The position numbers were made by a program, and so were the translations under genes. Of a DNA stretch of 64,000 bases, positions 8,085 through 61,765 are shown one piece after another. Origin of the DNA: a virus; the IMG/VR virus record IMGVR_UViG_3300012979_000038, positions 1-64,000 of that record. The stretch is one strand, 5' to 3'. The notes below the pieces were generated by a model, which had not been told where the DNA came from, searched no databases, and saw only the letters and a list, made by a program, of their open reading frames with translations. Within the stretch, counting starts at the first letter, position 1; each line of letters begins with the position of its first letter.

Positions 8085-8104
8085 TTTAATAAAAACATAA
8101 ATAT

Positions 8105-14996: not shown

Positions 14997-15278
14997 ATGA
15001 AAAACTTACAAGAATATATAACGGAATCATCTGCAAAAGTTGTTAGGAATCATAAGCTTAACAAACTTTTGAAACAGAATGGATTGGAAAAGATTCAACT
15101 ATGTAAAGGAAATGGTTATTTCTGGTTGACTAGCGAAGATGATGAAACATATCGGATTCTATCATCTTTAGAAACAACATCCATTTATACTAATTCATTT
15201 TCTGACCAGACACCAGAAGCATGGGTTGAAGAAATTAAAGAACTTTTAAAGGACACAGAACTTATACAAAACAAATAA
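14997..15278 (+). CDS. small protein with CTS-like N-terminus (MKNLQEYITES)
   Basis: Internal Met chosen (ORF opens at 14988 as MKHMKNL...). The leader resembles the MK[ST]L.xYI.E family described in findings. Confidence 0.4.
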   Translation: MKNLQEYITESSAKVVRNHKLNKLLKQNGLEKIQLCKGNGYFWLTSEDDETYRILSSLETTSIYTNSFSDQTPEAWVEEIKELLKDTELIQNK

Positions 15279-18639: not shown

Positions 18640-19206
18640 TTATCTATGATTTTTTAAGAATGTAGAAATTTCATTCCAATCAATACTATCCTTTTGTTTT
18701 CTATTCTCATTTACGACCTTATTTATATGTTTTATCATATTTTCATATAAATCTGCAATTTCTTCATGAGAGTTAAATTCATAATAAATAGTTTTTCCGT
18801 TTTTAGAGAATTTTGCTGTTAATGGTAATACTCTATTTGAATCTTTTGTGCATACATACCAGTCAGAATAATTCTTTTGGTTTTCTGCGCTTAACCAAAC
18901 GTTATAACCGTTCCAAACAAAACCTCCTAATATCTTGTTTTTGGCTTTATCAGAATAATAATTCAAAATAACGGATTTGATTTTTTGAATTGTTACGTTT
19001 TTTGTATCAAAAGTTGTAAACTTAAAGGTGCCGGTACCGGTAGAAATTCTTCTACCGGTATTAACAAAGGCACTATTTTTGAATACTTTTTCATCTTTCA
19101 TTATTTCATTGAAATCCCAACATACTTTAATTGTAGATTCATTAAGACATTCGATTGATTTAAAATCATTTGGTTTACAACTTCCATTTAAAATCATTTG
19201 TTTCAT
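18640..19206 (-). CDS. hypothetical protein
   Basis: 188-aa ORF. Confidence 0.4.
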   Translation of the reverse strand: MKQMILNGSCKPNDFKSIECLNESTIKVCWDFNEIMKDEKVFKNSAFVNTGRRISTGTGTFKFTTFDTKNVTIQKIKSVILNYYSDKAKNKILGGFVWNGYNVWLSAENQKNYSDWYVCTKDSNRVLPLTAKFSKNGKTIYYEFNSHEEIADLYENMIKHINKVVNENRKQKDSIDWNEISTFLKNHR

Positions 19207-22200: not shown

Positions 22201-25200
22201 TACGAAATCAACAGGAACATTTTCACAAGTAATATTTTCTAATGTTAAGTTGCAAGATTTGTGTGGAACATTTGCTTCTGTAAGAGCTGCGTCCCAATCA
22301 TTAACAAACTTAACAATATCAATACCAGTTACATTTCTTAGAACTACATTCTTAAGAGCTGCATCTGGAGTATATTTAAATACTTCAGCAGTTTGTTCAG
22401 CTGCAGGAGTAAATGTAACGTTTCTTAATTCGATATCAGAAATACGGTTTACTGGTAATGAAACTTCGTTTAAGATAACACCTTCAGCTGGTTTAAATGT
22501 TGTAATTGAAGAACCAATTGCACGATAAACGTGTAAGCTTGCTAAGTTGTTAATCTTGAAATCACCTAAGTGATATTCTTCAGAATCATTAAAACAGTTA
22601 CGTATATCAACTTCCTCAAGAGTATTAAGGTCGTTCATATTACTTAATAATGCTACGTTACATCTTGTTGGACCAAGAATTTCTAATGATAAACCATCTG
22701 GAGCGTTTACTGCTTGTGGAGCATCGTAATATTCTCCAGCATTAATTGTTATTTCATTACCACCAACTGTCATAACTATTGCATTTTCAGTTTTGTTAGT
22801 ATAACGATAAACGTCTGAAGTTCTGAATTCGTCAGAGATACCGAATAACAATTTTGTCATCATTGTACCTTTTGATTTAATCCAGTTATTAGCAATATTA
22901 CCAATAAATTCTAGTTTACCGAATGAGTGACCAGCTTCAACAGCTTTTCTAAAGTCAAGAACTTTAATCTTATCAACACCCATTATAGAGAATGGAGAAG
23001 AAATACCGTTCCATGTTGAGTTTGTTGTCCATTCCCATGTACTATCTATTTCCATTTCTTTAGCCCAATGTTCAGGTACTGCACCATCTAAGTCGGAGTT
23101 AGTTAAACCGAATACATTTTGACGAGCTGCTGTAATAGAGAATATGTCTGTATAGATAGAAGCATTTTCATTCTTAATACCCATATAGAACTTAATAGTA
23201 TTTTGAGAATATTCTCCAGAGAACCATTTAGAATCGTATAAGTTGAAACGGTTAGTTACCCACCATGTACGGTGTTGTGTTCTAGAACCATGGATAAAGT
23301 TCAAATAACCTGCACCAGATGGTAAATATTTAATTGTTTCTTGAACGTTATACATTCTTTCTGGCCACCAAGCTGCTTGTTTGTTGTTATACATATCTAA
23401 CAATGCTTTTGAAGATAGTACACCAGAGTTATACATCGCTGTATCAAGTTGTTTTACTTTATTCATAAAGTCAGCGTCATTTTCTAACAAGTTCCAAAGA
23501 ACTGAAGTAGGACCTGCGTAAGCGAATTGACCTTTTGAATAATCGTAAGTATTTCTATCTACTGTCCAGTGGAATACGATGTGACCATCATTACGAACAC
23601 CAAGAGTTGTATCGTTATCATAGTTGATATAATAGTAGTGTAGTCCGTCTTCTGTTGTTAACATTGAGTTCTTAACAACTTGGTCAATACCAGCGAATCT
23701 CATCAAGTAGATATAGTATGCTGCCAATTTCCAAACATCGAAGTAATCATATTTCTTTTCAGAGAAATATTCCATATATGTTCTACCGGCGAAAGATTTA
23801 CCATCTTTATCAACTTCATAAGCATCTCTATCAACAGAACCAACGTATTGTTTTTGTTGACCGTAGTTATCAGTATAATTATACTTGTTACCACCAGCTG
23901 CTTCTAAGTAAACAGATACATAATAATCTTCTTCGAATGGTGAACCAGCGATTTTATCACCATAATTAACTTGTTCGCCATCACCTACTCTTTCATCATC
24001 GAATGCAATATCTTCTACGAATGTACCGTAAGTTGCATCGAATGAAGCTACTCTTCCTTTATAAATGTGGTTTTCGATTGTTTTTGTTGAAACTGTCTTA
24101 GATACATTTTCATAATCGATATTTGTTAACATTTTATAAACTGGAGCATTGGCTCTCAAGTCATCTGAATCTTTATATTCTAAGTTATTATAAACTTTAT
24201 TACCAGCTTCTTCTAATTGTCTTTGATCTAGTACGAATACTAAAAGACCATCTTCAACAGCTTTGTCATATTCAGCTTCTGGAATTTCTACGTATGGAGA
24301 AAGTGTATAACCATCCAATCCATCAACTAAATAATCAACGCCTGGTTTACAGAAGTGAACGAATCTCCACATTGACTCAATATTATGAGTGTGTGATACA
24401 AGATATTCATCACCATCAGGACCTTCAATTTCAACGTCTGGCCAACGTGGTTCATAATCTGACATTACGAAACGTGTACCCATGAAAGTATTTTCTTCTT
24501 CACCAGGTGCAGCATGAACGTCAGTAATTAAGTTAACACCTTGTCCAAATAATGAACCGTTGTTAGATGCTTCCCAACATTCTACCTTTTCTGCGCTAAA
24601 TATTTTATTACCATTTTCATCATAAATATCTTCGAAACCGAATAGAGGAGTAGAACCTTTATCTGTCATGATGTTGAATTGACCTACGAATTCAGCATTA
24701 CCATATTTGCGGAAGCCGTTTTCATCATATTGAACATTACCAGCTTCGTCTCTCACTAATGGACAAGCAAAAATAACGATTGGTTTACCATCACAAGATG
24801 TACGAATATCGATACCATCTGCAAGTTCACCCATACGTTGTTGAGCTAATGTTCTACATAGATAACCAGTTTTACCTGAATCATCAGTACCTTGAACCAT
24901 CTTCATTGCATTACCCCATAATCTACCAGCACCAGCATTATGCGTCATAGAAGATTCAGCGAAGTCAGTTTTTAATGTCCATCTGTTTGTCCAACCTGAT
25001 CCTTCATATTGTTTCCAACAAGCTTGATCTACATAATATGTTTTATCTTCCTTAAGTGCATTTTTACCTTTTAGTTTCTTAAATTCTGGAACATCATATT
25101 CAACACCAGTTACAGGGTTTTGAATTTTTGAATATCCATCAATTGAATAAAGAGTAGCACCTGAATAACGGAATTGTTTTACTGTTAACCAATCACGTAA

Positions 25201-34695: not shown

Positions 34696-35901
34696 ATGGC
34701 AAGAAAAAGTGTAACTTTAAGTAAAACATCAGAAAAGAAACTAGTATCGTTTTTAAAACACAATCAAGAATATATAACTGAAGAATTTGAAACAAAATTT
34801 AGGGAACAAGTTATATATGACATTAAAAATATTAGAGAATGCTCCGAAAAGAAAATCGTTGATTTTTATTGTGAAGTAGCAAAATCAATGTTAGAATCTG
34901 GAGAAGTCAATTTCAATGACGAATTCTTTAATACTCTCAAAAATAAAGTTAGATCTAAATTATCTCAAGTTTATACATCAGGTAAAACATTCGATAATAA
35001 TATCGACATTTATTTTAATGAGGTAAAATCTATCTATATTAAAAATCCTCAAAACGAATCAGATGGACTTGAGTTTATTCCAGAAAACAGAGACATTTTC
35101 ATTAAAAACAATTTGAAGTTAGTTATTGAATGTGCTAAACGTTATCGTGATCTCGGTTTACCATTCGAAGATTTAATTCAAGTTGGAAATTATGGTTTAT
35201 TAATTGCATTTGATAAATTTGATACTGATAGAGCAAATTTACGTATTGCGATTATGAACGATATTAAAAATTCAGCTACAGAAACATTTACTAAATTAGA
35301 AGCTGAAGAAATCATTCGCAAAAATTTCACTTATTCTAAAAACTTAGAACAAACAATAAATTCTATTCCAGAAAATGGATTTGAATCAAAGGAAAAATTT
35401 ATTGAGTGGTCTAAGGTAAATATCAAAACAGCAGTATTCGCTTCAGTGGCTTTCCAATGGATTAGAGCAAATATCATTATTGAGCTCAATAAATATGGAA
35501 AGATCTTAAAAATTCCAAATTCAGTTAAAAATGATTTAGGTGCAGCGTCAATCATAAGATTGGATTCGTTGAACCCATATACTGATGATTGTTATCATGA
35601 TAATCAAATTTCAGATTACATTAATAATGAATTTAAAACTGAATATGAATTATATGATGAACAAGAACAAGAAGAATTATACAAAGAAACTGTAGAAGAT
35701 CTTTTATCTATTTTAAACAATCAAGAACGTCGTATTATTAAAAAGAAGTTTGGAATAGATTATCCGTATGAAATGAGTCCTAATGATATTGCAGAGAACG
35801 AAGGATTACCTGTTAATAAAGTAAAACAGATAATTAATTCATCAATGAAAAAATTATCTAACGAAGCTAATAGAAGCGGAAAGAAATCTATCTTTTCGTA
35901 A
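34696..35901 (+). CDS. sigma-70 family RNA polymerase sigma factor
   Basis: Region 2.2 DLIQVGNYGLLIAFDKFD, region 2.4 FQWIRANII, region 4 HTH ERRIIKKKFGIDYPYEMSPNDIAENEGLPVNKVKQI. Confidence 0.8.
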   Translation: MARKSVTLSKTSEKKLVSFLKHNQEYITEEFETKFREQVIYDIKNIRECSEKKIVDFYCEVAKSMLESGEVNFNDEFFNTLKNKVRSKLSQVYTSGKTFDNNIDIYFNEVKSIYIKNPQNESDGLEFIPENRDIFIKNNLKLVIECAKRYRDLGLPFEDLIQVGNYGLLIAFDKFDTDRANLRIAIMNDIKNSATETFTKLEAEEIIRKNFTYSKNLEQTINSIPENGFESKEKFIEWSKVNIKTAVFASVAFQWIRANIIIELNKYGKILKIPNSVKNDLGAASIIRLDSLNPYTDDCYHDNQISDYINNEFKTEYELYDEQEQEELYKETVEDLLSILNNQERRIIKKKFGIDYPYEMSPNDIAENEGLPVNKVKQIINSSMKKLSNEANRSGKKSIFS

Positions 35902-35948: not shown

Positions 35949-37751
35949 ATGGTTTTTGGAAATTTTAATGATGTGATGGAAGGTGAAAAACAATTATATG
36001 AAGCTTTGCAAGATAATTTATTCACCAATTCAATAAGAAATTCACAGATATCCGTAAATAATAAGAAACAATCTGCTTGGTCAAAACTATTAAACCTTTT
36101 ATCTCAATACGGTATGAATTATGATGACCAAGTATTAAGAAATATGTCTGCTATTCCAGCGGATAAAGCTCTTCAAAATAAAGAGGATGTAATGTTACAA
36201 AACTCTATGTATGGAGCTTTAAATAACTGGAAGGTTAAGGCGGAAGAAGACAAGGCATTTTCAGAAAAGACGTTGGAACAACGTCGTCAAATGTTAAGAA
36301 AGCTTTCACAAGCAACAGAACTTGAAGATATTCTTGACGTTATGGCAAATGAATGTATTGTTTATGATGATGACGAATCATATATTGGACAACCATTTAT
36401 TGATACTGGTTTAACACAAGATTTAACAGAAAAATCTACAGAAGAAATTCGTAACTGTGTTAACATGGCATTCTATAAATTGTATATGTTATTAGGATGG
36501 AAAACTTCTGCATGGGACGATTTTAAACGATTCCTAATCGATGGTGTATTAGCATATGAAATTGTTTATGATGATTTGGAACATCCAAAAACAATCATCG
36601 GTATTATTGATGTTGACCCAGTAACATTAACAAAAGAAGTTAAAGACGGTACAACAACATGGGTACAATATAAAGGTGTACAAGGACGTGAAAGAGTTTT
36701 ATTGGATGCTCAAATAATTTATATTAAATATGAAGATTCTGGTGTATCTGAAAGACAATCGTATCTTGAACGTTTAATTCGTCCATTTAATTTGTACCGT
36801 ATTGTAGAACAAGCACAAATTATTTGGACAGTAACTCAAGCATCATTTAAAACTTTGTTCACAATACCTATTAGTGGTATGAATAAAGCTAAGGGTATGC
36901 AAACGCTTTCTCAAGCAATGAATAGATATCGTGAAGATATTTCATTCAATGGAGAAACTGGTGAACTTCAAATTAATGGTAAAACTAATCTTCCATTTAA
37001 CAAAGAATATTGGATGCCAGAAAATGAAAATGGTAAACCAGAAATCGAAACACTTGTAGATAATGGTCCACAACTTAATGATTCTGACCAAATCAAGTAT
37101 TTTGAGGCAAAACTTTATAAAATGTCAAAAATTCCAAGTTCACGTTTTGATAAAGAAGCACAAACAACTTGGTTTGGATCAGATGCAACTCAACAAATGA
37201 GAGATGAAATTAACTTTGGACGTTTTGTATCTCGTTTAAGAAATACTTTCGTACAAATTATTCTTAAACCTTTACGTATTCAAGTTGCATTAACAGTTCC
37301 AGATATTAAGAATGATAAACGTATTCTTGATGCTATTTCATTTAGATTCAATACTTACAATCAGTTTACTGAAATGATGGATATTGAAATAATGACAAAA
37401 CGAGTTGAATTTATTGGAACAATGAAAGATTCATTAACTGTAATTGATTCTGATGGTGAAGAAAAACCATTCTTCTCACCAAAATTCTTAATTATTAAGT
37501 ATTTGAAGATGTCAGAAGCTGATTTAGAATTGAACGAAAAATATAAACTAGAAGAAAAAATTGCTTCCCAAAAGAGTGGAGATTCTGAATCAGAAGGAGA
37601 TGAAGGAGGAGACGATACTGATTTAATGGGAGGAGATGAAGGAGGAGATGAAGGAGGTTCTCCTGAAAAAGAAACTGATGGTGGAGGTGATTTAGATTCA
37701 GAAATGTTAGGAGACGTTCAACCAGAATCTACAGAAACTACAGAAGCTTAA
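35949..37751 (+). CDS. portal protein (T4 gp20-like)
   Basis: Segment YRIVEQAQIIWTVT...NKEYWMPENENGKPEIETLVDNGPQLND parallels T4 gp20 YRITRAPDRRVWYVDT...[24 protein letters not shown]. Acidic Gly/Asp/Glu-rich C-terminal tail as in gp20. Confidence 0.65.
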   Translation: MVFGNFNDVMEGEKQLYEALQDNLFTNSIRNSQISVNNKKQSAWSKLLNLLSQYGMNYDDQVLRNMSAIPADKALQNKEDVMLQNSMYGALNNWKVKAEEDKAFSEKTLEQRRQMLRKLSQATELEDILDVMANECIVYDDDESYIGQPFIDTGLTQDLTEKSTEEIRNCVNMAFYKLYMLLGWKTSAWDDFKRFLIDGVLAYEIVYDDLEHPKTIIGIIDVDPVTLTKEVKDGTTTWVQYKGVQGRERVLLDAQIIYIKYEDSGVSERQSYLERLIRPFNLYRIVEQAQIIWTVTQASFKTLFTIPISGMNKAKGMQTLSQAMNRYREDISFNGETGELQINGKTNLPFNKEYWMPENENGKPEIETLVDNGPQLNDSDQIKYFEAKLYKMSKIPSSRFDKEAQTTWFGSDATQQMRDEINFGRFVSRLRNTFVQIILKPLRIQVALTVPDIKNDKRILDAISFRFNTYNQFTEMMDIEIMTKRVEFIGTMKDSLTVIDSDGEEKPFFSPKFLIIKYLKMSEADLELNEKYKLEEKIASQKSGDSESEGDEGGDDTDLMGGDEGGDEGGSPEKETDGGGDLDSEMLGDVQPESTETTEA

Positions 37752-37757
37752 TAAAAT

Positions 37758-38339
37758 ATGAAAACACTTAAAGATTACATATTAGAGAAAAGTTGGGATA
37801 AATATCAACAAGGTGTTTATCCCGACGATTCTATTAAAAGCGCTATTTATGATTATGTAAGTGGTATGACAAGCGGAGTAAATTATGACCTCCGAAAAGG
37901 AAATACCAGAGGTTCTAAAAAAGTTATTGATAAATTGGATTCTGCTTTTAAAGATGCAAACTATGCAGATGGTAAAATATTAAATGTTTGGAGAACTGTT
38001 GACTGGGATTATATGAAAAATATATACGGTGCAACTAGAGAAAACATAAAAGATTTTGTTGGAAAAACTTTTGAGAATAAAGGTTATATGTCAACAACGA
38101 AGAAGTTTGGTTCACCTTGGGGTAAAAGTTGGATGAAAGATGATTTGGTTATGCATATTACTTCAAAAGATCCTTATCCAGTTTTAGATATAAATAGAAT
38201 TTTTAAATCATCTGAAATAGATTGTGCTGACCAAGAAGAGTATTTATTACCAAGAAGTACTAAATTGGTTTTGAAAAAAATATCTTATCATAGAAATAAA
38301 CATAAAACCATCGAATTAGAGATGGAAATTGAATCATGA
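37758..38339 (+). CDS. mono-ADP-ribosyltransferase (C3/Alt-like) with CTS-like N-terminus
   Basis: R-S-E triad: YDLRKG (Arg), GYMSTTK (STS motif), QEEYLLPRST (Q-x-E followed by LLPR as in C3 exoenzyme QLEMLLPR). N-terminus MKTLKDYILEK. Confidence 0.75.
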   Translation: MKTLKDYILEKSWDKYQQGVYPDDSIKSAIYDYVSGMTSGVNYDLRKGNTRGSKKVIDKLDSAFKDANYADGKILNVWRTVDWDYMKNIYGATRENIKDFVGKTFENKGYMSTTKKFGSPWGKSWMKDDLVMHITSKDPYPVLDINRIFKSSEIDCADQEEYLLPRSTKLVLKKISYHRNKHKTIELEMEIES

Positions 38340-49174: not shown

Positions 49175-49396
49175 TTAACAATCTGGTTCTGTATAAACTT
49201 TGTTATCTTCAATTTTGACAACCTTAAAAATTGTACCACCGGCATACCAGCCTTTGCCAACTTGTGGTTTCTTTTTCCAATTCTTTGCCCATTCTGTGAA
49301 GTTATCATCAAGCTTATTACTTACATAAACTTCCCATGGTTCTCCGTTTTCAGCTTTAACAGCTTCACTAATTATATAGTTTTGTAATGTTTTCAT
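49175..49396 (-). CDS. small protein with CTS-like N-terminus (MKTLQNYIISE)
   Basis: 73-aa ORF. Its leader matches the MK[ST]L.x[YH]I.E family. Confidence 0.4.
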   Translation of the reverse strand: MKTLQNYIISEAVKAENGEPWEVYVSNKLDDNFTEWAKNWKKKPQVGKGWYAGGTIFKVVKIEDNKVYTEPDC

Positions 49397-51640: not shown

Positions 51641-52783
51641 TTAAAATTGTTCACAAAGTTTAAATGCTGATTCAATAGTATCTGATATTGAATAATTTCT
51701 GTATTCTGCTCGTTTTCCGCATAATAACATATTCGGATAATCTTTCTTTAATAACTCAAGATATCTTCCATAAAGACCGATTGAACGAGTATCTCTAATT
51801 AAATCAATTGGTTCTGCGCCAATCTCCCATTCTTTATAATATTTATAAATTGCTATTGTGTGTTCATCAAATTCTTTAGATTTTCCAATTTTCCAAGGTG
51901 TTAACCACTTAAACTCTGTTATTTTATACCATTTTACTTTTTTATCCAAATAATTAACAACTGGGCATCCTAATAAATTTGTTGTGTTTGCTGATTCATC
52001 TCTAATTACATAATCTGCAGCAGTCCATTCTAACTTACCAATGCAATAATTAAATAGTCTATCAATTTCACCAGTATAAATAACTCTATCTGCTAAAGAT
52101 GAATAAGATTTTGGTTTTTCTAAAAAATTTGTATCAAGTATTATTGATATATCATCTCCAATGATATTTTCTATAAGTTTAGTATATCCATTTTCTGGAA
52201 TTCCTTGATAGATCTCTTTGTAAAATCTGGCATCAGAAAAAAGTAATGTGTTATAAATTCGTTGATGAACATTAGCTGGTAAATTTTCGGGATCTTTGTT
52301 ATAAATCTTAGTATAATATTTTCTATAAATAGTTTCGTAAATTGTTTCACCGTATTTATAAATCAAATATTCCTTAAGATTATTAAACTCTTCATTTTCC
52401 ATAAATTTATCATCACGTAATCTTCTTTCAAATTGATATGGATAAGTTTCACCATAAATATCATAACACATTTGTAAATCATCAGAAAAAAGATAACGGT
52501 TTTTGTCGTCAACTAAATATTCATTATAAACTGTTGGTACGATATTGTCATATTTCTTAAGAAAATTCCAAACATCTTTATTATTTGTATGAATAATGTG
52601 CGTATCAAATAGATGAATTTGAATATCATATTTAAAATCATTCGCACAATTTCCTCCAACAAATGGACGTTCTTCTATTATAACAACAGAATATCCTTTA
52701 TCTTTAAGCAGACGAGCACAAGTGGCACCAGCAAAGCCGGCGCCAACTATCATAAAATCATATTTGTTTTTATTAGCGTGCAT
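51641..52783 (-). CDS. glf: UDP-galactopyranose mutase-like flavoenzyme
   Basis: N-terminal FAD Rossmann [42 protein letters not shown] and ~380-aa length are typical of Glf. Confidence 0.65.
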
Positions 52784-53048
52784 CAGTTAAACCTTCGTAT
52801 TTTCCAGATTCTAAGCAACAGTTCTTATATTTCTTTCCAGAACCACATGGACATGAATCATTTCTACGAATCTTAGGATATTCTCGAACTTGTTGTTTTG
52901 GACGTTGATAACGCATCATAAGTTGTTGCATTTTAGAAGGAGAAGCATCCAATGCTGATTGCATCGCTTCCATAGCATTTTGATTGTCTTCAAATTGGAT
53001 GTTTGTTACGCCATCCATAATCATTCCTGTTTCGATGTTAGTATTCAT
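52773..53048 (-). CDS. SEC-C motif protein
   Basis: C-terminal [13 protein letters not shown] metal-binding SEC-C motif. Confidence 0.55.
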
Positions 53049-53115: not shown

Positions 53116-53160
53116 ACTTAAACTTTATTTTTATTTAATAGAAATTAAAATTTAACTAAT

Positions 53161-54114
53161 ATGAAGTCATTAAATCAATACATAAACGAGAAACTTGTTT
53201 TGAAGTCTAATAGCAAAATTAGAAAACATCAAGAATATAATTATCATCCTAAAACAAATGAGGAATTAAGAACGTTAGTTAATGAACTCATTGAAGAACG
53301 TGGTATTGAAGCTGATTTAAACGACATTGATACATCAAAAATTGATGATATGTCACATGTATTTGAAAACAAAAAATTTGATGGAGATATTTCAGACTGG
53401 GACGTTTCTAATGTAAGATATATGGGACATATGTTTTTATATAATTTTGATTTTACCGGAAAAAACACAGATTTTAGTAACTGGGATGTATCAAACGTTT
53501 ATCATGCCGATGGAATGTTTGCTGGATGTCAAAAGTTTGAAGGTAAAGGATTGGAAAACTGGAAATTGAAATCGTTAGGAGTAGCAAAAGAAATGTTCGC
53601 CAATTGTCATGAGTTAAATTTCGACATAACAAATTGGGATATTTCTAATATAGAATACTTTGAATCGATGTTTATAAATTGTAAAAAATTCAATCAAGAT
53701 TTATCTAACTGGAAATTCAATCATAATGTTAGAAATTTAACTGGTTTATTTATGGGGTGTGAAAGTTTCGAAGGAAAGGGATTGGAAAATTGGGATGTTA
53801 GTAAAATAACAAATATGAGAAGTATGTTTGCTGGCTGTGCAAAATTTAATGCCGATATAACTAAATGGGATGTTTATTCAGTTATTGGCATGTGTAATAT
53901 GTTTCATGGATGTAAAGAATTTAATCAGGATTTATCTAATTGGAATGTAAAAAATCTTATGGATATTACTGAAATGTTTAGGGATTCTGGTATGACATAT
54001 AATTTAGCAAAATGGGCACCTAAGCTTCACAATAAATGTAAAATAAAAAATGCATTAACTAATACACCGGTAACTAAATCAAAACGTCAACCTTTCTGGT
54101 ACTTTAGAAAATAA
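53161..54114 (+). CDS. DUF285-repeat protein, paralog 1, with CTS-like N-terminus
   Basis: Tandem ~22-aa repeats F.GDIS.WDVSNV..M..MF typical of DUF285 (Mycoplasma-type repeat). N-terminus MKSLNQYINEKLVLKSNSKIRK shared with 4 paralogs. Confidence 0.7.
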   Translation: MKSLNQYINEKLVLKSNSKIRKHQEYNYHPKTNEELRTLVNELIEERGIEADLNDIDTSKIDDMSHVFENKKFDGDISDWDVSNVRYMGHMFLYNFDFTGKNTDFSNWDVSNVYHADGMFAGCQKFEGKGLENWKLKSLGVAKEMFANCHELNFDITNWDISNIEYFESMFINCKKFNQDLSNWKFNHNVRNLTGLFMGCESFEGKGLENWDVSKITNMRSMFAGCAKFNADITKWDVYSVIGMCNMFHGCKEFNQDLSNWNVKNLMDITEMFRDSGMTYNLAKWAPKLHNKCKIKNALTNTPVTKSKRQPFWYFRK

Positions 54115-54119
54115 TATAA

Positions 54120-54150
54120 AAGGGGAACATTTAGTTCCCCTTATTTTTTT
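54120..54150. terminator. bidirectional terminator
   Basis: AAGGGGAACATTTAGTTCCCCTT followed by a T-run. Confidence 0.6.
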
Positions 54151-54520
54151 CATATTCTCTTTTTGAAATGATTGTAAATGTCTCTTGAAGTTCATTAATA
54201 CTTCCTTCCCAAATATTCCTTAATTTATCTTTAGAGATTTCATAAATCAAAAATACTTGACCCGCCTTAACTTTGATTTCTATGCATTTGATATATGAAT
54301 AATCCAAAAACTGTTCGGAAGGTGTATATGAAACAGCTACCAAATATTTAAGATACTTTCCTTCATAAACATTCTTAAGAAATGCTTCAATGCTAAGATT
54401 TAACATTTTATACTCTTGCATCATTTCATTAAGTTGTCTTTTATATGAATCTCTTTCGTTTTCTCGTAGAGCAATTTTAGATTCTAATAATGATACTTTC
54501 TTTTTGTTAAATAAATCCAT
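54131..54520 (-). CDS. coiled-coil hypothetical protein
   Basis: 129-aa ORF. Confidence 0.4.
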   Translation of the reverse strand: MDLFNKKKVSLLESKIALRENERDSYKRQLNEMMQEYKMLNLSIEAFLKNVYEGKYLKYLVAVSYTPSEQFLDYSYIKCIEIKVKAGQVFLIYEISKDKLRNIWEGSINELQETFTIISKREYEKNKGN

Positions 54521-54524
54521 ATTC

Positions 54525-55076
54525 TTAGTTTATTTTGTTTATTTGGTCTACCATCAAATTAAGATATTGCTTCAAATTTTTTGTGAAATTTTCAATATCG
54601 TACATTTTATCATGGTCAAAAATTCGCAAATATGCATAAGTTGAAAATTTTTCAAAATGATAATCATCATGAATTTTAACAAGTTTTATGCAATCATTAG
54701 TAAGACTGCAACAATCAATCGTTAATGATTTTTCGAATGGATTAAACAATACAGTCAACTCTGTTGATGCAATTACGCCTTCATATTCACGGTGAAGTTT
54801 TATATTCGTATAATGATGATGATTTAATTTATCGGTTTTACACATTATATAGTTATTAAGATTGTTACCAAGCGTTATAAATGGTACTTTACCAGTAAGA
54901 CCATGTTCATCCATAAAATCGCAAGTTCCAAGAATATCTTTTGCTTGTTCCAAATGTTTCAAACAATTGTCTAACATCTGACACAAATTATCCTTGTATG
55001 CCTTTTGTGTTTGATTACGTTCTTCTTCTCGTTTTTTTGCAACTTCGAGAATTCCTAATTCATTGATAATTGTCAT
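54525..55076 (-). CDS. hypothetical protein
   Basis: 183-aa ORF. Confidence 0.4.
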   Translation of the reverse strand: MTIINELGILEVAKKREEERNQTQKAYKDNLCQMLDNCLKHLEQAKDILGTCDFMDEHGLTGKVPFITLGNNLNNYIMCKTDKLNHHHYTNIKLHREYEGVIASTELTVLFNPFEKSLTIDCCSLTNDCIKLVKIHDDYHFEKFSTYAYLRIFDHDKMYDIENFTKNLKQYLNLMVDQINKIN

Positions 55077-55081
55077 AATAT

Positions 55082-55303
55082 TTAAGCTTCGTTAATACGG
55101 ATAAGTGATTTTTCCAAAAATTCCAAAACTTTATCGTCACGATAGAAACAATCTACTCCATCGATAAACTGTACCTGACGAGCTACTCCATAGTGCTCCT
55201 CAATATAGTTAAAAACGAATTGTCCAAAACGAATATAATCTGGACGTGATTGTGAGGCAGTTACAACCTCTTGTGTCAATTCTTCAATTTTCATATTATT
55301 CAT
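55082..55303 (-). CDS. hypothetical protein
   Basis: 73-aa ORF. Confidence 0.35.
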   Translation of the reverse strand: MNNMKIEELTQEVVTASQSRPDYIRFGQFVFNYIEEHYGVARQVQFIDGVDCFYRDDKVLEFLEKSLIRINEA

Positions 55304-55311
55304 TTTTTGTT

Positions 55312-56538
55312 TTAAGCGATTTTTTGATAAGTTGTTTTAGGTGCTTTTGAAAGACGACCTTTTGTGTAAATAATCTCTTTACGATTTGATACGCAACCTA
55401 CATTTACTATGAATGAATATCCAATCTCATCGTTAACATAGAACTTCTTGATGGTGTCGCTCTTAACCATGAAAAGTAAACCAGATTTTGTATCGCGGAT
55501 GTAATATTCTGTATATTGAGCAGGTGCCCAATATGGAAAATAACCATCTTCGTCATAATTATCAACTAATTGAGTATACTCAATTTTACCAGTTACATTG
55601 TACTTAACACCGTATTCAATACCGTTTGCTTGTACAGCTGGAGTAAAAGTATCTACTTTCATTGAATCGTCGTACATCTTAAGTGCGAAGAATACCTTAG
55701 AAACTTCATAAAGGTTAATGTACTCAGCTTCGAATGCTTGTTTGATTTCTTTTACAAAATCTGTTTTTGCTTCCAAGTTCTTTACGAAATCAAATATGGT
55801 TTTGTTGTATTGCTCATTAACTGGGTATTCGGAGATATTGCGGAGCATTACTGCAATATGGTCAGTACTTCCAGGAACTTTCTCTGAACCATAAGGAGTT
55901 TGTTCGTAACATACCTTAACCCAATTTTGTTGTGTTTTACGATACTCTGCAACAACTGGAATGATTGCATTGATGTTAACTGCTTGTGAAAAGATGTTAA
56001 TTGATTTACCTCCACACCATACTCCAAGATTTTCCGAGTAACATCCGTCATATACTTTAATGATTTTATCTACTTTGTAAATAAAAGATGAAAGATACTT
56101 ACCATCATTCAACATTTTGTTAACACATGCAGTACCGACTTGCATCCATTGATTTGTATTTGGATTATAAACTACATGTGATTCTGTTCTTGCTATATGT
56201 GATTTTCCACAATAGTCACATTTTGTGTAATTGAGACCAAACTCTTTTGGCATATTTTTGAAGTACTCATCTGAAACTTTGGTGACGATTCCATCACGGT
56301 GATAAATACTTGCTACCAAAACCCACTCGTTTGCTACTACATAATCAATATTAACTTCAATAAGATCTAATGTATAACGATTACAATAAGACCCTTCATA
56401 TTCAACGATATATCTCGTGCAATCTACCGGTTTAGGTTGACTGAACGTAATAGTTGGTTTAACGGTGAAGTGTTTAACCATTGCATTAAGTTTGTTTTCA
56501 ACTTGCTTACGATTTGCTGGTAGAATGTAGAAGTTCAT
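55312..56538 (-). CDS. hypothetical protein with CxxC pair
   Basis: 408-aa ORF with CDYCGKSH; preceded by a class A motif. Confidence 0.45.
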   Translation of the reverse strand: MNFYILPANRKQVENKLNAMVKHFTVKPTITFSQPKPVDCTRYIVEYEGSYCNRYTLDLIEVNIDYVVANEWVLVASIYHRDGIVTKVSDEYFKNMPKEFGLNYTKCDYCGKSHIARTESHVVYNPNTNQWMQVGTACVNKMLNDGKYLSSFIYKVDKIIKVYDGCYSENLGVWCGGKSINIFSQAVNINAIIPVVAEYRKTQQNWVKVCYEQTPYGSEKVPGSTDHIAVMLRNISEYPVNEQYNKTIFDFVKNLEAKTDFVKEIKQAFEAEYINLYEVSKVFFALKMYDDSMKVDTFTPAVQANGIEYGVKYNVTGKIEYTQLVDNYDEDGYFPYWAPAQYTEYYIRDTKSGLLFMVKSDTIKKFYVNDEIGYSFIVNVGCVSNRKEIIYTKGRLSKAPKTTYQKIA

Positions 56539-56549
56539 ATTGAAATATT

Positions 56550-56594
56550 TTTTAATTACAAATACAATATAGTAAAAAATATGAAAATTTCAAA
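56550..56594 (-). promoter_or_regulatory. class A promoter-like motif (minus sense), near-identical to consensus
   Basis: Minus-sense TTTGAAATTTTCATATTTTTTACTATATTGTATTTGTAATTAAAAAA, 12 nt before the ATG at 56538. Confidence 0.55.
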
Positions 56595-56604
56595 ATTTTA
56601 AAAC

Positions 56605-56626
56605 TTTATTTTTATATATAAATATG
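56605..56626 (+). promoter_or_regulatory. class B-like variant (TTATTTTTATATATAAATATG) upstream of the DUF285 operon
   Basis: Contains TATAAATA; differs from class B by a TA insertion. 14 nt before the ATG at 56640. Confidence 0.35.
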
Positions 56627-56639
56627 AATATACATTTTT

Positions 56640-57632
56640 ATGAAAAGTTTAACCCAACATATAACAGAGAAACTTGTATTAACTAATAAATCAAAAATAC
56701 GAGGAAAACATACATATAATTATTTTCCAAAAGATTTGAATGAATTACGTGACATCATGTATAAATTAATTGATGAACGAGGAAATAAAGCAAACTTGAA
56801 CGATATTGATGTTTCTAATATAACAACATTAGAAGGATTATTTAGAGAGTTTGATGAGTTTAACGGTGATATTTCGCAATGGGACGTTAGTAATGTTTTG
56901 ATTATGACAGATACATTTGCTGTATCTGAATTTACTGGTGATATTTCTCAGTGGGATGTTTCTAGTGTTACTAATATGCAACGCATGTTTCATGATTCAG
57001 AATTTGATGGAGATATTTCAGATTGGAACGTTCGTAATGTAGAGAATATGATTGATATGTTTAATGGCAGCAAATTTACTGGTGATTTAAATAAATGGGA
57101 TGTTAGTAAAGTAAAAGATATGTCAGGTATGTTTGGTGAATCTATATTTGAAGGTAATATTTCTGATTGGAACACGAAAGCAGTTGAGCGTATGGATTGC
57201 ATGTTTGAAGATAATTTGGTATGGAATGGCGATATATCTAAATGGGATGTTTCTAATGTTATTTCAATGATACGTATGTTTCATTATTCAGGATTTACCG
57301 GTAAACATGGTTCATTAAAAAATTGGAATGTTGAAAAGGTAATAGATGCACAATTAATGTTTGCCGAAACTGAGTTTAACGGTGATCTATCTGGTTGGAA
57401 ACTTAAAAGCGCAAAAACTATTAGATCCATGTTTTTACGTTCATCTTTTAATAATGACAGTATTAAAGATTGGAATAAATATTTAAACAGTGTAAGAAAT
57501 ATGAATTTCATGTTTTCTGAAACCAAATTTTCACAAGATTTATCTCATTGGACTATTGATAAACGATGCGACTTTGTTGGAATGTTTGATGATTGTCCTA
57601 TAAAAGAAGAATATAAACCAAAATTTAAATAA
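56640..57632 (+). CDS. DUF285-repeat protein, paralog 2
   Basis: N-terminus MKSLTQHITEKLVLTNKSKIRG; repeats GDISQWDVSNV; C-terminus CPIKEEYKPKFK. Confidence 0.7.
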   Translation: MKSLTQHITEKLVLTNKSKIRGKHTYNYFPKDLNELRDIMYKLIDERGNKANLNDIDVSNITTLEGLFREFDEFNGDISQWDVSNVLIMTDTFAVSEFTGDISQWDVSSVTNMQRMFHDSEFDGDISDWNVRNVENMIDMFNGSKFTGDLNKWDVSKVKDMSGMFGESIFEGNISDWNTKAVERMDCMFEDNLVWNGDISKWDVSNVISMIRMFHYSGFTGKHGSLKNWNVEKVIDAQLMFAETEFNGDLSGWKLKSAKTIRSMFLRSSFNNDSIKDWNKYLNSVRNMNFMFSETKFSQDLSHWTIDKRCDFVGMFDDCPIKEEYKPKFK

Positions 57633-57633
57633 T

Positions 57634-58332
57634 ATGAAAAGTCTAACACAACATATAACAGAAAAACTTGTACTAAACTCCAATTCAAAGATTAGAAAAA
57701 ACAAAGAATATAATTATCATCCTAAAACAAGAGCTGAACTAAAAAAACTAATAGAACAACTTATTAAAGAACGTGGTTATGAAGCAGATTTAAACGATAT
57801 CGATACATCTTTAATAACAGATATGTCAAGTTTATTTTTTGGATCGTATTTTAATGGAAATATATCTGAATGGGATGTAAGTAATGTTGATAATATGGAT
57901 GGAATGTTCAATGGATGTAAATTTACAGGCGAAAATGGAGATATATCTGGATGGAATGTAAATAATGTAGAAGATATGAGTTTTATGTTTAGTGATTCTG
58001 AATTTAACGGTGATATATCTGATTGGAATGTATGTAAAGTACAGAACATGACATGTATGTTTTTAAACTCAAAATTTAATGGAGATTTATCTAAATGGAA
58101 TGTTGGCAATGTAAAATATATGACAAGTATGTTTAAAGAATCTGAATTTACTGGAGAAAATGGAGATATATCTAATTGGGATTTACACAGTATATCTATG
58201 ATTGATGAGATTTTTAAACAAACAAAATTCAATAAAGATATATCTAAATGGAATATTAATAAAAATTGCTCAACAGTAGATATGTTTAAGGAATGTCCTA
58301 TAAAAGAAGAATATAAACCTAAGCTTAAATGA
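57634..58332 (+). CDS. DUF285-repeat protein, paralog 3
   Basis: N-terminus MKSLTQHITEKLVLNSNSKIRK; C-terminus CPIKEEYKPKLK. Confidence 0.7.
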   Translation: MKSLTQHITEKLVLNSNSKIRKNKEYNYHPKTRAELKKLIEQLIKERGYEADLNDIDTSLITDMSSLFFGSYFNGNISEWDVSNVDNMDGMFNGCKFTGENGDISGWNVNNVEDMSFMFSDSEFNGDISDWNVCKVQNMTCMFLNSKFNGDLSKWNVGNVKYMTSMFKESEFTGENGDISNWDLHSISMIDEIFKQTKFNKDISKWNINKNCSTVDMFKECPIKEEYKPKLK

Positions 58333-58334
58333 TT

Positions 58335-59156
58335 ATGAAAACATTAAACCAATATATAGAAGAGAAACTTGTTTTGAATTCTAATTCAAAGATTAGGAAA
58401 CAACATTATAATTATCATCCCAAAACAAGAGATGAGCTAAAAGAAATAGTTAAAAAACTTATTGAAGAAAGAGGTAATGAAGCTAACTTAAACGATATTA
58501 ACACATCTTCAATAACAGATATGTCAAATATGTTTGAAAATATAAAATTTGTAGGTGATATTTCAGGCTGGGATGTTAGCAACGTTACTAATATGAGTTG
58601 GATGTTTTATAAATCTGAATTCAATGGAGATATATCTAAATGGGATGTTAGTAATATTGAAGTCATGTATTGTATGTTTGCACGTTCAAAGTTTAACGGC
58701 GACATATCTGATTGGGATGTAAGAAAAGTTAAAGATGTATCAGGGATGTTTGAAGAATCTAAATTTAATATGGATATATCTAAATGGGATGTTAGAAACG
58801 TAGAAAACATGTCACATATGTTTCATAAATCTGAATTTAATGGAGATATATCGCAATGGGATGTTAGTAGTGTTACTAAAATGACTGCTATGTTTAATAC
58901 GTCTTCTTTTAACGGAGATATTTCTAAATGGAAAGTTGACTCAGTTAAAGATATGGGATATATGTTTTATGAATCTAAATTCAATGGAGATATATCCAAA
59001 TGGAATGTGGATAAAGTAGAAGATATGAGGGCAATGTTTAAAAAATCAAAATTTAATAAAGATATATCTGGTTGGAATATTTTGATGATGTGTGATATTG
59101 CGAATATGTTTAAACAATGTCCTATAAAAGAAGAATATAAACCTAAGTTTAAATAA
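58335..59156 (+). CDS. DUF285-repeat protein, paralog 4
   Basis: MKTLNQYIEEKLVLNSNSKIRK taken as the start; the ORF opens 2 codons earlier with ATGA overlap. C-terminus CPIKEEYKPKFK. Confidence 0.7.
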   Translation: MKTLNQYIEEKLVLNSNSKIRKQHYNYHPKTRDELKEIVKKLIEERGNEANLNDINTSSITDMSNMFENIKFVGDISGWDVSNVTNMSWMFYKSEFNGDISKWDVSNIEVMYCMFARSKFNGDISDWDVRKVKDVSGMFEESKFNMDISKWDVRNVENMSHMFHKSEFNGDISQWDVSSVTKMTAMFNTSSFNGDISKWKVDSVKDMGYMFYESKFNGDISKWNVDKVEDMRAMFKKSKFNKDISGWNILMMCDIANMFKQCPIKEEYKPKFK

Positions 59157-59157
59157 T

Positions 59158-60201
59158 ATGAAAACATTAAAGCAATATATAGTAGAGAAACTCGTTTTAA
59201 CTAACAATACAAAGATTAGAAAACGAGAATATAATTATCATCCAGAAACGAAAGATGAGTTAAAAAAATTAGTTAAAAAACTCATAGAAGAACGAGGAGA
59301 TAATGCAGATTTAAATGATATTGACGTTTCAGAAATAACTGATATGTCTAGCTTATTTAGTTTTTCTCATTTTAACGGAGATATATCTGGTTGGGACGTT
59401 AGTAATGTTAAAGATATGTCCCATATGTTTTCAAGTAGTTATAAGTTTAACGGTGATATATCAAATTGGGATGTTGGTAATGTAACTAATATGAGTTGGA
59501 TGTTTAATTTTTCTAAATTTGATGGTGATATATCTAGATGGGATGTTAGTAATGTTACTAACATGGACGGTATGTTTAATGATTCACATTTTATGGGAGA
59601 TATATCTAAATGGGACACAAGTAAATGCAAATCTATGATTATTATGTTTGAATCTTCAAGTTTCGATGGAGATATTTCTAAGTGGAATGTAAGTTCTGTT
59701 GAAAATATGGGCTCTATGTTTAAGAAGTCACAATTCAATGGAGACATATCTGAATGGGATGTAAGTTCAGTCAAAAATATGGGTTGGATGTTTGAAGAAT
59801 CAAAATTTAATGGTGATTTATCTAAATGGAATGTGAGTTCTGTAGAAAAAATGACAAATATGTTCCATAGTTCTAAATTCAATGGAGATATATCAAAATG
59901 GAATGTCGGTAAAGTTACTGACATGTCCGGTATGTTTACTAAAACTAATTTTAATGGAGATATAAGTAAATGGGATGTTAGTAATGTTACTGACATGCTA
60001 TGTATGTTTGGTTGGTCTAAATTCAATGGAGATATAAGTAAATGGAATGTTAGAAATGTTGAAAATATGGAATCAATGTTTAACAAAACTGAATTCAACA
60101 GAGATATATCTAAATGGGACGTAACATCTGTTAAAACATTTAATAATATATTCTATGAATGTCCAATAAAAGAAGAATATAAACCAAAGTTTAAAAAATA
60201 A
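59158..60201 (+). CDS. DUF285-repeat protein, paralog 5 (longest repeat array)
   Basis: N-terminus MKTLKQYIVEKLVLTNNTKIRK; about 12 repeats; C-terminus CPIKEEYKPKFKK. Confidence 0.7.
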   Translation: MKTLKQYIVEKLVLTNNTKIRKREYNYHPETKDELKKLVKKLIEERGDNADLNDIDVSEITDMSSLFSFSHFNGDISGWDVSNVKDMSHMFSSSYKFNGDISNWDVGNVTNMSWMFNFSKFDGDISRWDVSNVTNMDGMFNDSHFMGDISKWDTSKCKSMIIMFESSSFDGDISKWNVSSVENMGSMFKKSQFNGDISEWDVSSVKNMGWMFEESKFNGDLSKWNVSSVEKMTNMFHSSKFNGDISKWNVGKVTDMSGMFTKTNFNGDISKWDVSNVTDMLCMFGWSKFNGDISKWNVRNVENMESMFNKTEFNRDISKWDVTSVKTFNNIFYECPIKEEYKPKFKK

Positions 60202-60204
60202 AAA

Positions 60205-60240
60205 AGAGTTACAGAAAATCTGTAACTCTTTGTTTTATAA
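60205..60240. terminator. bidirectional terminator
   Basis: AGAGTTACAGAAAATCTGTAACTCT followed by TTGTTTTAT. Confidence 0.6.
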
Positions 60241-61471: not shown

Positions 61472-61765
61472 TTATGAAAAATATTTTGCTAAAAATTCAA
61501 AATAGTCTTTTAACATTTTTGTTCGTTTACTTTTCTTAGTCTTTGCCAAATTTTGCATTTTATCGTTTTCGCATCTTTCCAAAAGTTGTTTACCGATATT
61601 GTCCCAGCAACCCATAAAAATTGCTTGTAATTCTACAAATATATCCTCAACTTCCTTTTCAGTTTTATAATCAAGATTTTCTGCATTTTCTTTACACCAA
61701 TTCTTAACTAATTCTGAAACTGAGTTTTTAGATTCTAACAATATTTTATCCTTAAGTGTTTTCAT
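61472..61765 (-). CDS. small protein, N-terminus MKTLKDKILLES (CTS-like)
   Basis: 97-aa ORF. Confidence 0.4.
   Translation of the reverse strand: MKTLKDKILLESKNSVSELVKNWCKENAENLDYKTEKEVEDIFVELQAIFMGCWDNIGKQLLERCENDKMQNLAKTKKSKRTKMLKDYFEFLAKYFS

Follow-up and report, generated by a model that had tools for sequence, protein, structure and literature searches.

The five DUF285 genes analyzed here encode soluble DUF285/PARCEL-type LRR proteins, predicted from their fold to be binding proteins. Their first ~10 residues (MK[ST]L.Q[YH]I.E) form a leader that, by sequence comparison, resembles MKTYQEFIAE, the capsid-targeting sequence of T4, and the resemblance extends to the positions on which targeting and protease cleavage depend. 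This leader, which an earlier note on the same DNA had overlooked, is the new point of the present study and offers a concrete mechanism for the array. Specifically, we regard it as somewhat probable that the five proteins are LRR binders that are packaged in the phage head, trimmed by a protease and co-injected with the DNA, in a variation on the arsenal of internal proteins (Ip) of T4. The source is an uncultured, T4-related giant phage from a clade whose contigs reach 410 kb, and the window (the whole stretch of DNA analyzed) comprises 64,000 nt, positions 1 to 64,000 of the 80.9-kb contig IMGVR_UViG_3300012979_000038.

All five genes lie on the plus strand: paralog 1 (53161..54114, 317 aa, leader MKSLNQYINE), paralog 2 (56640..57632, 330 aa, MKSLTQHITE), paralog 3 (57634..58332, 232 aa, MKSLTQHITE), paralog 4 (58335..59156, 273 aa, MKTLNQYIEE), and paralog 5 (59158..60201, 347 aa, MKTLKQYIVE). 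As listed, the paralog 4 ORF spans 58329-59156 and 275 aa, but alignment of the gene junctions indicates that its start is most likely the second ATG (58335, MKTLNQYI...), which matches its paralogs. The ORF coordinates bear out the five plus-strand genes of 317, 330, 232, 275, and 347 aa described previously, as well as the tight packing of paralogs 2-5, with TAA-T-ATG junctions and an ATGA at the 3/4 junction. No sixth DUF285 ORF was found elsewhere in the window. The two DUF285 transcription units are bounded by bidirectional terminator hairpins. One (54120..54142, both strands), with a nine-pair stem and T runs on each strand, separates paralog 1 from a convergent minus-strand block, and the other (60203..60231, both strands), with a thirteen-pair stem, separates paralog 5 from a convergent gp32-like gene that matches phrog_224 (single-strand DNA binding protein).

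The DUF285 identity proposed in the earlier note was confirmed by HMM search, in which all five genes match PF03382 at 157-538 bits (cut-off 25; E 3.8e-68, 3.8e-63, 2.7e-46, 1.8e-83, and 1.6e-164 for paralogs 1 to 5). The NCBIfam PARCEL model TIGR02167 was run against the 317-aa and 347-aa genes, paralogs 1 and 5, and matches both (70 and 124 bits; cut-off 30). None of the five paralogs matches BspA-type LRR_5 (PF13306) at E <= 0.01, and the "BspA family" label that NCBI attaches to DUF285 proteins is a loose one. Tandem repeats of variable number are indeed present, about 6 to 11 per gene (11 in paralog 5); their period, however, is not ~22 aa but 24 aa in paralogs 2-5 and 24-28 aa, mostly 25, in the Cys-containing units of paralog 1. 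Across 24 canonical 24-aa units, F12, F17, and W24 never vary; entropy approaches or exceeds 3 bits at positions 9, 10, 13, and 14. The C-terminal CPIKEEYKPK[FL]K, previously ascribed to all five proteins, is present in paralogs 2-5 only, paralog 1 ending in ...TNTPVTKSKRQPFWYFRK. Likewise, the supposed 65-aa N-terminal module is composite: residues 1-23 are a leader modeled at low confidence, and what follows is the folded helix that caps the repeat domain at its N-terminus.

The anticipated repetitive structure is seen in the AlphaFold models, which show a confident LRR solenoid after the leader. In the paralog 5 model (pLDDT 93.5, pTM 0.85), residues 4-11 form a helix, residues 12-22 fall below 50 and the solenoid then continues to the C-terminus; in both models the leader is predicted as a short helix, with a linker of low confidence after it. 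The modeled domain curves as a solenoid to which each repeat contributes one short strand, and its structure resembles that of solved LRR proteins. No signal peptide or membrane segment was detected in the five proteins (highest Kyte-Doolittle 19-residue mean 0.3-0.7; hydrophilic N-termini), and thus they are not surface lipoproteins like the bacterial PARCEL proteins.

The T4 proteins IpII and IpIII begin MKTYQEFIAE|A, and mutagenesis in T4 has assigned residues 4 and 7 to targeting and residues 8 and 10 to processing (PMC9026906). K2, I8, and E10 do not vary among 23 family members, in which a hydrophobic or aromatic residue is kept at positions 4 and 7. A leader PSSM trained on 34 leaders of non-DUF285 proteins from relatives ranked IpIII second (15.3) and IpII third (10.5) among 336 T4 ORFs, the next-highest score being 6.8. 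Among the ORFs of the window, six score 25-29 and all others <=9. Four of these six are DUF285 genes in their listed form (27.8 for both paralog 2 and paralog 3), and the others are an ADP-ribosyltransferase (25.3) and a 93-aa ORF (27.1); paralog 4 attains its score from the second ATG only.

The leader is common to otherwise unrelated proteins in the window. The 193-aa ADP-ribosyltransferase (37758..38339, plus strand; leader MKTLKDYILE; PF03496, E 1.4e-12) starts 6 nt past the stop codon of a T4-type portal gene of the gp20 family (35949..37751, plus strand; PF07230, E 1.2e-74). T4 Alt, which is packaged in the head and N-terminally processed (PMC5694885), matches PF03496 too (E 5.8e-36). 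The 93-aa ORF (14997..15278, plus strand; leader MKNLQEYITE) matches only PHROGs without assigned function. Among relatives, the gene immediately after the portal bears the leader in 17 of 47 loci, with a cargo that varies between NUDIX, DUF285, and others, and leader-bearing proteins at large include NUDIX, LRR_5, and non-repeat proteins. In the close relatives L147 and L149, all nine genes of an array carry it, those for BspA-type LRR and two non-repeat proteins included.

Soluble proteins that lack an export signal and are modeled as protein-binding LRR solenoids might also be unpackaged binders acting inside the producing cell, in host takeover, in anti-defense, or as assembly chaperones, with the conserved N-terminus serving as a translation-start aid, an oligomerization helix, or a means of docking to another phage structure. 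We consider this rather unlikely. It draws support from giant-virus DUF285 proteins in which, going by database labels, the repeats are joined to putative E3-ligase and kinase domains, suggestive of an intracellular adaptor, and from the purifying selection seen between paralog 1 and its ortholog in the closest relative (dN/dS 0.18), which fits any conserved function. The search for the prohead protease also leans toward it: a T4-type prohead protease and major capsid gene were found neither on the 80.9-kb contig nor near the portal in close relatives, and among the loci covered, with the matches listed in a wider search ending before this clade, the protease was seen only beside the portals of the distant relatives L056 and L058. 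Also counted against head packaging are the acidic to neutral pI of the predicted mature proteins (5.0-7.1), the brevity of the leader, which is a 10-residue motif only, its absence from about half of the top metagenomic DUF285 homologs, and the location of some leaderless phage DUF285 proteins amid tail and baseplate genes, as in cyanophage ACG-2014f. However, action confined to the producing cell leaves unexplained the match of the leader to the T4 capsid-targeting sequence at functionally mapped positions, its presence on an Alt-family enzyme beside the portal and its recurrence in the post-portal slot of relatives.

The DUF285 units and the portal gene also have in common an upstream promoter motif that is locked in position. 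Paralog 1 is preceded by the promoter-like motif AACTTTATTTTTAT (53121..53134, plus strand), with its core, TATTTTTAT, beginning 35 nt ahead of the ATG; only two exact copies occur in the window, upstream of paralogs 1 and 2. The corresponding promoter-like motif of the paralog 2-5 operon (56602..56624, plus strand) is AACTTTATTTTTATATATAAATA, which contains TATAAATA 23 nt before the ATG, and the same motif as in the DUF285 units, TATTTTTAA, lies 36 nt before the ATG of the portal gene. The form TATTTTTA[AT] has 23 copies in the window, nine of which sit 32-38 nt ahead of a start codon, among them those of paralog 1, paralog 2, and the portal gene. The TATTTTTA motif is conserved upstream of the portal genes of relatives, and may mark late transcription. 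The gene preceding the 93-aa leader ORF, by contrast, has a sigma70-like promoter, so that the link between leader genes and the portal-type promoter is not universal.

Paralog 1 is set apart from paralogs 2-5 by minus-strand genes with their own promoter, as had been proposed: four ORFs (129, 183, 73, and 408 aa; 54131..56538, minus strand) and a sigma70-like promoter (TTGAAA-N16-TATATT; 56566..56593, minus strand) of a class also found upstream of 52773-53048 (minus strand), 7728, 11627, and 14325. None of the four proteins has a Pfam match, and the 408-aa protein matches solely phrog_2319, which has no assigned function; in relatives at 90% identity its gene adjoins a DNA ligase gene and not DUF285 genes. 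The four genes are outside the DUF285 system. Their description as an insertion is not supported: the closest relative, L142, has the same layout of paralog 1 and minus-strand block, and no unsplit array was found among relatives, so that insertion is not demonstrated.

A promoter motif held in common with structural genes could also be expected of adhesins, that is, virion-surface decorations or tail-fiber helpers comparable to bacterial PARCEL/BspA surface proteins or phage Ig-like decorations. In bacteria, most DUF285 proteins are surface lipoproteins (PMC2996958), a leaderless DUF285 protein of cyanophage ACG-2014f lies among tail-collar and baseplate genes, and a DUF285 copy of Campylobacter phage CPt10 lies near baseplate genes. 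Such a role is nevertheless improbable here: the proteins consist of leader and LRR only, with no capsid or tail anchoring domain, the leader is like an internal-packaging tag and unlike a fiber-attachment domain, and the array is surrounded by DNA-metabolism genes (NrdD, DHH, gp32) and no tail genes.

The history of the array put forward in the earlier note is supported only in part. Diversification by recombination between repeats finds no support in the window, where the nucleotide identity of repeat units is 66% within versus 65% between genes (maximum 82%), and neither does repeat-number polymorphism, the ortholog of paralog 1 in the closest relative having an equal repeat count. No recent exchange was detected between the five paralogs (DNA identity 67-78%; longest exact match 32 nt), and the paralogs in the window are old and without recent recombination. 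The modular ends and cassette shuffling, on the other hand, are seen in relatives: between the nine-gene arrays of L147 and L149, one cassette has been replaced and one relocated, and DNA identity is 90% in the leader codons versus 65% just downstream. Arrays occupy differing genome positions among relatives, and neighboring cassettes in relatives match PF13306.

According to one proposal, PARCEL repeats spread horizontally and are encoded by palindromic DNA (PMC2996958). In the present array, when the repeat PWM is set against its own reverse complement, the top match is 0.385 (mean 0.284, sd 0.037). Comparison with synonymous recoding gave P values of 0.08 to 0.84 for inverted 9-mers and of 0.03 to 1.0 for antisense ORFs, so that neither dyad symmetry nor long antisense ORFs clearly exceed what the amino-acid sequence imposes. 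Thus, even though that proposal and the differing array positions would suit a passively expanding PARCEL repeat element of the mobilome with little or no phage function, this is very improbable given five intact ORFs with promoters and terminators, purifying selection on the paralog 1 ortholog, DNA symmetry not clearly beyond coding limits and no recent duplications.

A host-interaction role, suggested previously for the array, is plausible, and under head packaging and co-injection it would take the following form. The DUF285 genes and the portal gene would be transcribed via one promoter class. The first ~10 residues, as a short helix on a flexible linker, would dock each protein onto the assembling prohead core, and a T4-type prohead protease would cleave after the invariant I-x-E. 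The mature solenoids, of 26-39 kDa, would remain in the head with the DNA and be ejected into the next host cell, where the variable repeat surface of each paralog may bind a different host protein, most plausibly a defense or restriction factor. The array would then be a cargo library, with cassettes gained, lost, and swapped over long time-scales between conserved leader and tail junctions. In T4, Ip1, Ip2, and Ip3 reportedly each block one GmrSD variant. More generally, the T-even Ip genes are diverse, have only the leader in common, and each block one restriction enzyme (PMC12373910, PMC3012670). In the giant virus AaV, purified particles were found to contain two DUF285 proteins (PMC7507832).

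Across the clade, the tag may act as a "load into head" address for exchangeable cassette arrays, with the DUF285 solenoids as diversifiable, antibody-like injected anti-defense binders; we put this forward tentatively, as possible rather than probable. The cassette cargoes in question comprise LRR binders, the ADP-ribosyltransferase, NUDIX, and others. To our knowledge, DUF285/PARCEL repeats, which giant phages and giant viruses carry in abundance, have no assigned role, and phage-injected counter-defense proteins are under-explored, the detail coming mainly from T4 Ip1-3. If the clade-wide reading is true, it would give viral DUF285/PARCEL repeats a function and extend the T-even Ip paradigm far beyond Tequatrovirus. 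Should the leader prove to be a capsid address, the injected proteome of a whole uncultured giant-phage clade could be picked out by a simple sequence rule, and LRR scaffolds would be added to the injected anti-host effectors. The tag could then also load foreign proteins into such phages, a use to which T4 has already been put.

Several known systems resemble the array in part. The PARCEL/DUF285/TIGR02167 proteins of Mollicutes, Listeria, and other bacteria (e.g., LppQ) belong to the same HMM family and have a 24-25-residue unit, with conserved hydrophobic and variable polar positions, in varying number. However, they are mostly membrane-targeted, whereas the phage proteins have no signal peptide, and a palindromic DNA signature does not clearly stand out here from the constraints of coding. 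AaV (Kratosvirus quantuckense) likewise has an expansion of viral DUF285 paralogs with a conserved upstream motif (PMC7507832, PMC5917014, PMC10720644), and its DUF285 proteins are the closest BFVD structural matches to the modeled array proteins. In contrast, AaV infects eukaryotes, carries 38 DUF285 copies in terminal repeat regions, and is not known to have a T4-type leader. The multigene LRR or ankyrin families of large eukaryotic viruses, such as the FNIP repeats of CroV and the ankyrin/F-box proteins of poxviruses, offer an analogy only, with a different terminal module and cellular machinery. The ejection proteins of phiKZ, 201phi2-1, and SPN3US are paralogous head-internal families with N-terminal propeptides cut after Glu by a gp21-family protease (PMC5694885), but these propeptides mostly exceed 100 residues, cleavage follows the motif A/S/G-x-E, and no LRR proteins are among the cargoes. 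T4 Ip1, Ip2, Ip3, and Alt differ in that their cargo is small unrelated proteins rather than five paralogs of a 26-39 kDa LRR solenoid family, and the predicted mature proteins here have no sequence similarity to Ip1-3. In both phages, however, a leader of ~10 residues ending in I-x-E is common to otherwise unrelated proteins, the genes form clusters, lie outside the core set, and vary from one relative to the next, and a T4-type portal is accompanied by an Alt-family ADP-ribosyltransferase with the same tag.

Its gene content marks the window as part of the genome of an uncultured giant phage related to T4, since it carries a T4-type portal gene (PF07230, E 1e-74) with homologs, 50-72% identical, on IMG/VR contigs as long as 410 kb. 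The surrounding metagenomic contig (80.9 kb, ENA ERZ27246411 k141_1621455, G+C about 29%) also bears NrdD, a DHH phosphoesterase, a gp32-type single-strand DNA binding protein, an RNA ligase and a DNA polymerase fragment. IMG/VR scans queried with genes 1 and 2 found no close relatives, and megablast of the DUF285 locus against 50,697 phage records gave no DNA-level match; relatives were gathered through gp32, portal and exact-protein look-ups. A 193-kb relative found through gp32 (62% identical) lacks a DUF285 array next to that gene, so the position of the array is not conserved. Another relative carries three DUF285 cassettes (326, 251 and 206 aa) elsewhere in its genome.

The five-gene plus-strand array described from sequence in the earlier note is confirmed by the ORF listing and by the profile search proposed there: gene 1 (53161-54114, 317 aa), gene 2 (56640-57632, 330 aa), gene 3 (57634-58332, 232 aa), gene 4 (58329-59156, listed as 275 aa) and gene 5 (59158-60201, 347 aa) all match PF03382 (Pfam DUF285; E 1e-46 to 1e-164) and are the only ORFs of the window to do so. 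Genes 1 and 5, the two tested, also match TIGR02167, the NCBIfam model for PARCEL (Palindromic Amphipathic Repeat Coding ELements; PMC2996958). The true start of gene 4 is most likely the second ATG, at 58335, which gives a paralog-like MKTL start. Four minus-strand ORFs (129, 183, 73 and 408 aa; 54131-56538) lie between genes 1 and 2, and hairpins with T runs on both strands close the gene 1 unit (54120-54142) and the gene 2-5 unit (60203-60231) against their convergent neighbors. When the proteins are split at a conserved Trp, the repeat unit measures 24 aa in genes 2-5, whereas in gene 1 it contains a Cys and is usually 25 aa long (range 24-28); each gene has some 6 to 11 such units. The repetition seen originally thus stands, its length of ~22 aa being slightly off. 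Likewise, the CPIKEEYKPK[FL]K ending once ascribed to all five proteins is found only in genes 2-5, and gene 1 has an unrelated tail. CPIKEEYKPK was rejected as a separate module or second cleavage site, as it sits in a confidently folded C-cap (pLDDT 90-98) and recurs in many DUF285 proteins whose N-termini differ.

AlphaFold models of gene 1 (pLDDT 86, pTM 0.80) and gene 5 (pLDDT 93.5, pTM 0.85) gave the repetitive structure anticipated for these paralogs, a solenoid to which every repeat contributes one short strand. Matches to solved structures in Foldseek were weak (best E 0.016); among predicted viral structures it found DUF285 proteins of the giant virus AaV, Megaviridae and giant phages (E 1e-12 to 1e-16). 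In both models the first ~23 residues, a helix (4-11) followed by a linker of pLDDT <50, stand apart from the solenoid, whose N-cap is helix 32-46. The shared 65-aa N-terminal segment is therefore not the single module first proposed; it consists of a detachable leader and a structural cap.

This leader resembles in sequence the capsid-targeting sequence of phage T4. The leaders are MKSLNQYINE (gene 1), MKSLTQHITE (genes 2 and 3), MKTLNQYIEE (gene 4) and MKTLKQYIVE (gene 5), followed in all five by KLVL..S.KIRK, and the extension adjoining MKSLTQHITE is KLVLNSNSKIRK. In T4 the N terminus reads MKTYQEFIAE|A in IpII and IpIII and MKTFKEF...ITE|A in IpI. The ten N-terminal residues of IpIII are enough to bring foreign proteins into the head, with residues 4 and 7 serving targeting and residues 8 and 10 serving gp21 cleavage after [IL]-x-E (PMC9026906). 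All 23 family members compared, drawn from several phages, have K2, I8 and E10. The strict leader pattern occurs on 6 of the 152 window ORFs, namely the five DUF285 genes and ORF 37758-38339, and a slightly looser pattern recovers only IpII and IpIII from an 18-kb T4 segment. A scoring matrix trained on 34 leaders of non-DUF285 proteins from related phages, and hence built without input from T4 or the DUF285 genes, is bimodal in the window, with six ORFs at 25-29 and the remainder at about 9 or less. Among 336 T4 ORFs (57% of the genome) it ranks gp61.1 at 21.3, IpIII at 15.3, IpII at 10.5 and the next at 6.8. The top-scoring gp61.1 (54 aa; 18966-19130, minus strand, of T4 locus L146) starts MKTFKEFIKED and may be an unrecognized capsid-targeted peptide.

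The leader is not confined to DUF285 proteins. ORF 37758-38339 (+), which starts 6 nt past the stop codon of the portal gene, encodes a 193-aa ADP-ribosyltransferase (PF03496, E 1.4e-12) with the leader MKTLKDYILE. T4 Alt, a head-packaged protein whose N terminus is trimmed and which is injected (PMC5694885), matches the same family (E 5.8e-36), and the window protein looks like its small counterpart; the Pfam profile is the sole link besides a weak BLASTP match to Alt (E 0.006), and tblastn against phage records gave no match. A 93-aa ORF (14997-15278, +; MKNLQEYITE) scores 27.1 with the leader matrix, and two small minus-strand ORFs have degenerate leaders, MKTLKDKILLE (61472-61765; 8.7) and MKTLQNYIISE (49175-49396; 9.1). 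Across 48 related portal loci the leader is found on 55 of 1908 ORFs, and the gene immediately 3' of the portal bears it in 17 of 47, with NUDIX, DUF285 and other cargoes. At many of the remaining loci the next gene encodes a gp5-like hub, which in the window follows the ADP-ribosyltransferase. Two related loci, L147 (430-5777, -; on a 392-kb contig) and L149 (544-5772, -), whose 408-aa protein is ~90% identical to that of the window, contain nine-gene tandem arrays with a leader on every gene, most commonly MKDF[TI]VYINEKLKITK, ahead of five DUF285, two BspA-type LRR_5 and two non-repeat proteins. As unrelated cargoes share one leader in the window and its relatives, the organizational unit, judged from sequence, is leader plus cargo, with DUF285 the commonest cargo.

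Regions upstream of genes sort into two promoter-like classes. A sigma70-like class, TTGAAA-N15-19-TA[TC]ATT, precedes the minus-strand block (56593-56566), which bears out the suggestion that the block has its own promoter, as well as the SEC-C gene by gene 1 and several others. At 5320-5487 (+) another sigma70-like promoter precedes a stretch of ~120 nt that closes with a tRNA-like T-arm, acceptor strand and CCA (GTGGGTTCAACTCCCACCTTTCCCACCA) and may be a small tRNA-like RNA; its Rfam tmRNA match is weak (16.7 bits, E 1.6e-4, where the gathering score is 47), and ARAGORN called neither tRNA nor tmRNA there. The second class is TATTTTTA[AT], often running on into TATAAATA; the window, 92% of which is coding, has 23 copies of it (for example 35913, 53126 and 56607 on the plus strand and 62539, 41295, 34531, 18586, 5294 and 4596 on the minus strand). 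In nine cases the copy starts 32-38 nt 5' of a start codon; gene 1, gene 2 and the portal gene account for three of these, and six other genes for the rest. One more copy is 71 nt 5' of a 2855-aa ORF (19237-27804, -; phrog_14959), which is upstream of Ig-domain and collagen-like proteins and is probably a giant structural or fiber protein. In 16 of 31 relatives the portal gene has the motif with the same spacing, and in eight more with a spacing of 41-45 nt; the motif also lies ahead of the three-gene DUF285 array of the related locus L005. Thus the DUF285 units share their promoter wiring with the portal gene, and the genes between them are wired differently. We infer that the second class is late. 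As a caveat, the 93-aa leader ORF comes after a gene with the sigma70-like class. A sigma-factor-like protein (phrog_351) is encoded at 34696-35901.

The window paralogs are old: DNA identity of their N-terminal segments is 67-78%, and the longest stretch shared exactly by two paralogs measures 32 nt. Repeat units differ as much within genes (66% nt identity) as between them (65%; maximum 82%), and recent gene conversion or repeat recombination in the window was rejected. L142, the closest relative, has the same layout of gene 1 and minus-strand block, and its gene 1 ortholog, 89% identical, has an equal repeat count. These observations give no sign of the repeat recombination and no direct evidence of the insertion into a once-continuous array that the earlier note envisaged. 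The dN/dS of gene 1 (0.18) resembles that of its neighbors (0.09-0.26), and positive selection on it was rejected. The gene 1 comparison with L142 thus revealed no change in repeat number; cassette shuffling did emerge elsewhere, as seven cassettes pair between L147 and L149 at 78-98% identity, one has shifted from slot 6 to slot 2, and each array holds one unpaired cassette. Over seven L147 cassettes, heterologous cargoes included, DNA identity is 90% in the first 16 codons and 65% in the next 27 nt, and 3' ends and spacers are likewise conserved; cassettes could plausibly be exchanged through such repeated junctions. At L005, a protein with a TnsA-like endonuclease N-domain (7711-8166, -) heads the genes divergent from the DUF285 array, with an LRR_5 protein a few genes on (6406-7266, -), and may be relevant to array mobility. 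PARCEL palindromy did not clearly exceed what coding constraints impose: the similarity of the repeat matrix to its reverse complement is modest, and synonymous codon reshuffling reproduces the inverted 9-mers. Long antisense ORFs within gene 3 (57777-58232, 151 aa) and gene 5 (59439-60098, 219 aa) were rejected as real genes and are by-products of the repeat amino-acid sequence, since such lengths arise under synonymous recoding.

On balance we lean slightly toward genes 1-5 encoding LRR binders that would be packaged in the head, trimmed by a protease and ejected with the DNA. The core gp20, gp21, gp22 and gp23 is conserved in T4-related phages (PMC9026906), and no gp21-family prohead protease was found on the 80.9-kb contig; phmmer with T4 gp21 returned distant relatives only, and a protease profile scan only unrelated loci among the matches listed (at least 80). 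Further weak points of packaging are the pI of the mature proteins (5.0-7.1), the lack of the leader in about half of metagenomic DUF285 homologs, and the probably external location of some phage DUF285 proteins. Binders that act inside the cell and are never packaged are a reading we consider doubtful beside the T4-like leader. An external adhesin is improbable for genes 1-5. A repeat element devoid of function, next to a gene 1 dN/dS like that of its neighbors, is hardly credible.

DUF285 genes of giant phages and giant viruses were known already, if unexplained, as was capsid targeting in T-even phages. The proposed link between the two appears to be new, as a full-text literature search on capsid targeting and leucine-rich proteins found no paper joining them. 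With packaging as the preferred reading, the DUF285 array would amount to a T4 Ip/Alt variant whose diversifiable cargo is an LRR scaffold. Whereas bacterial PARCEL proteins are mostly lipoproteins (PMC2996958), these DUF285 proteins have neither signal peptide nor membrane segment and begin with a leader like that of the T4 internal proteins.
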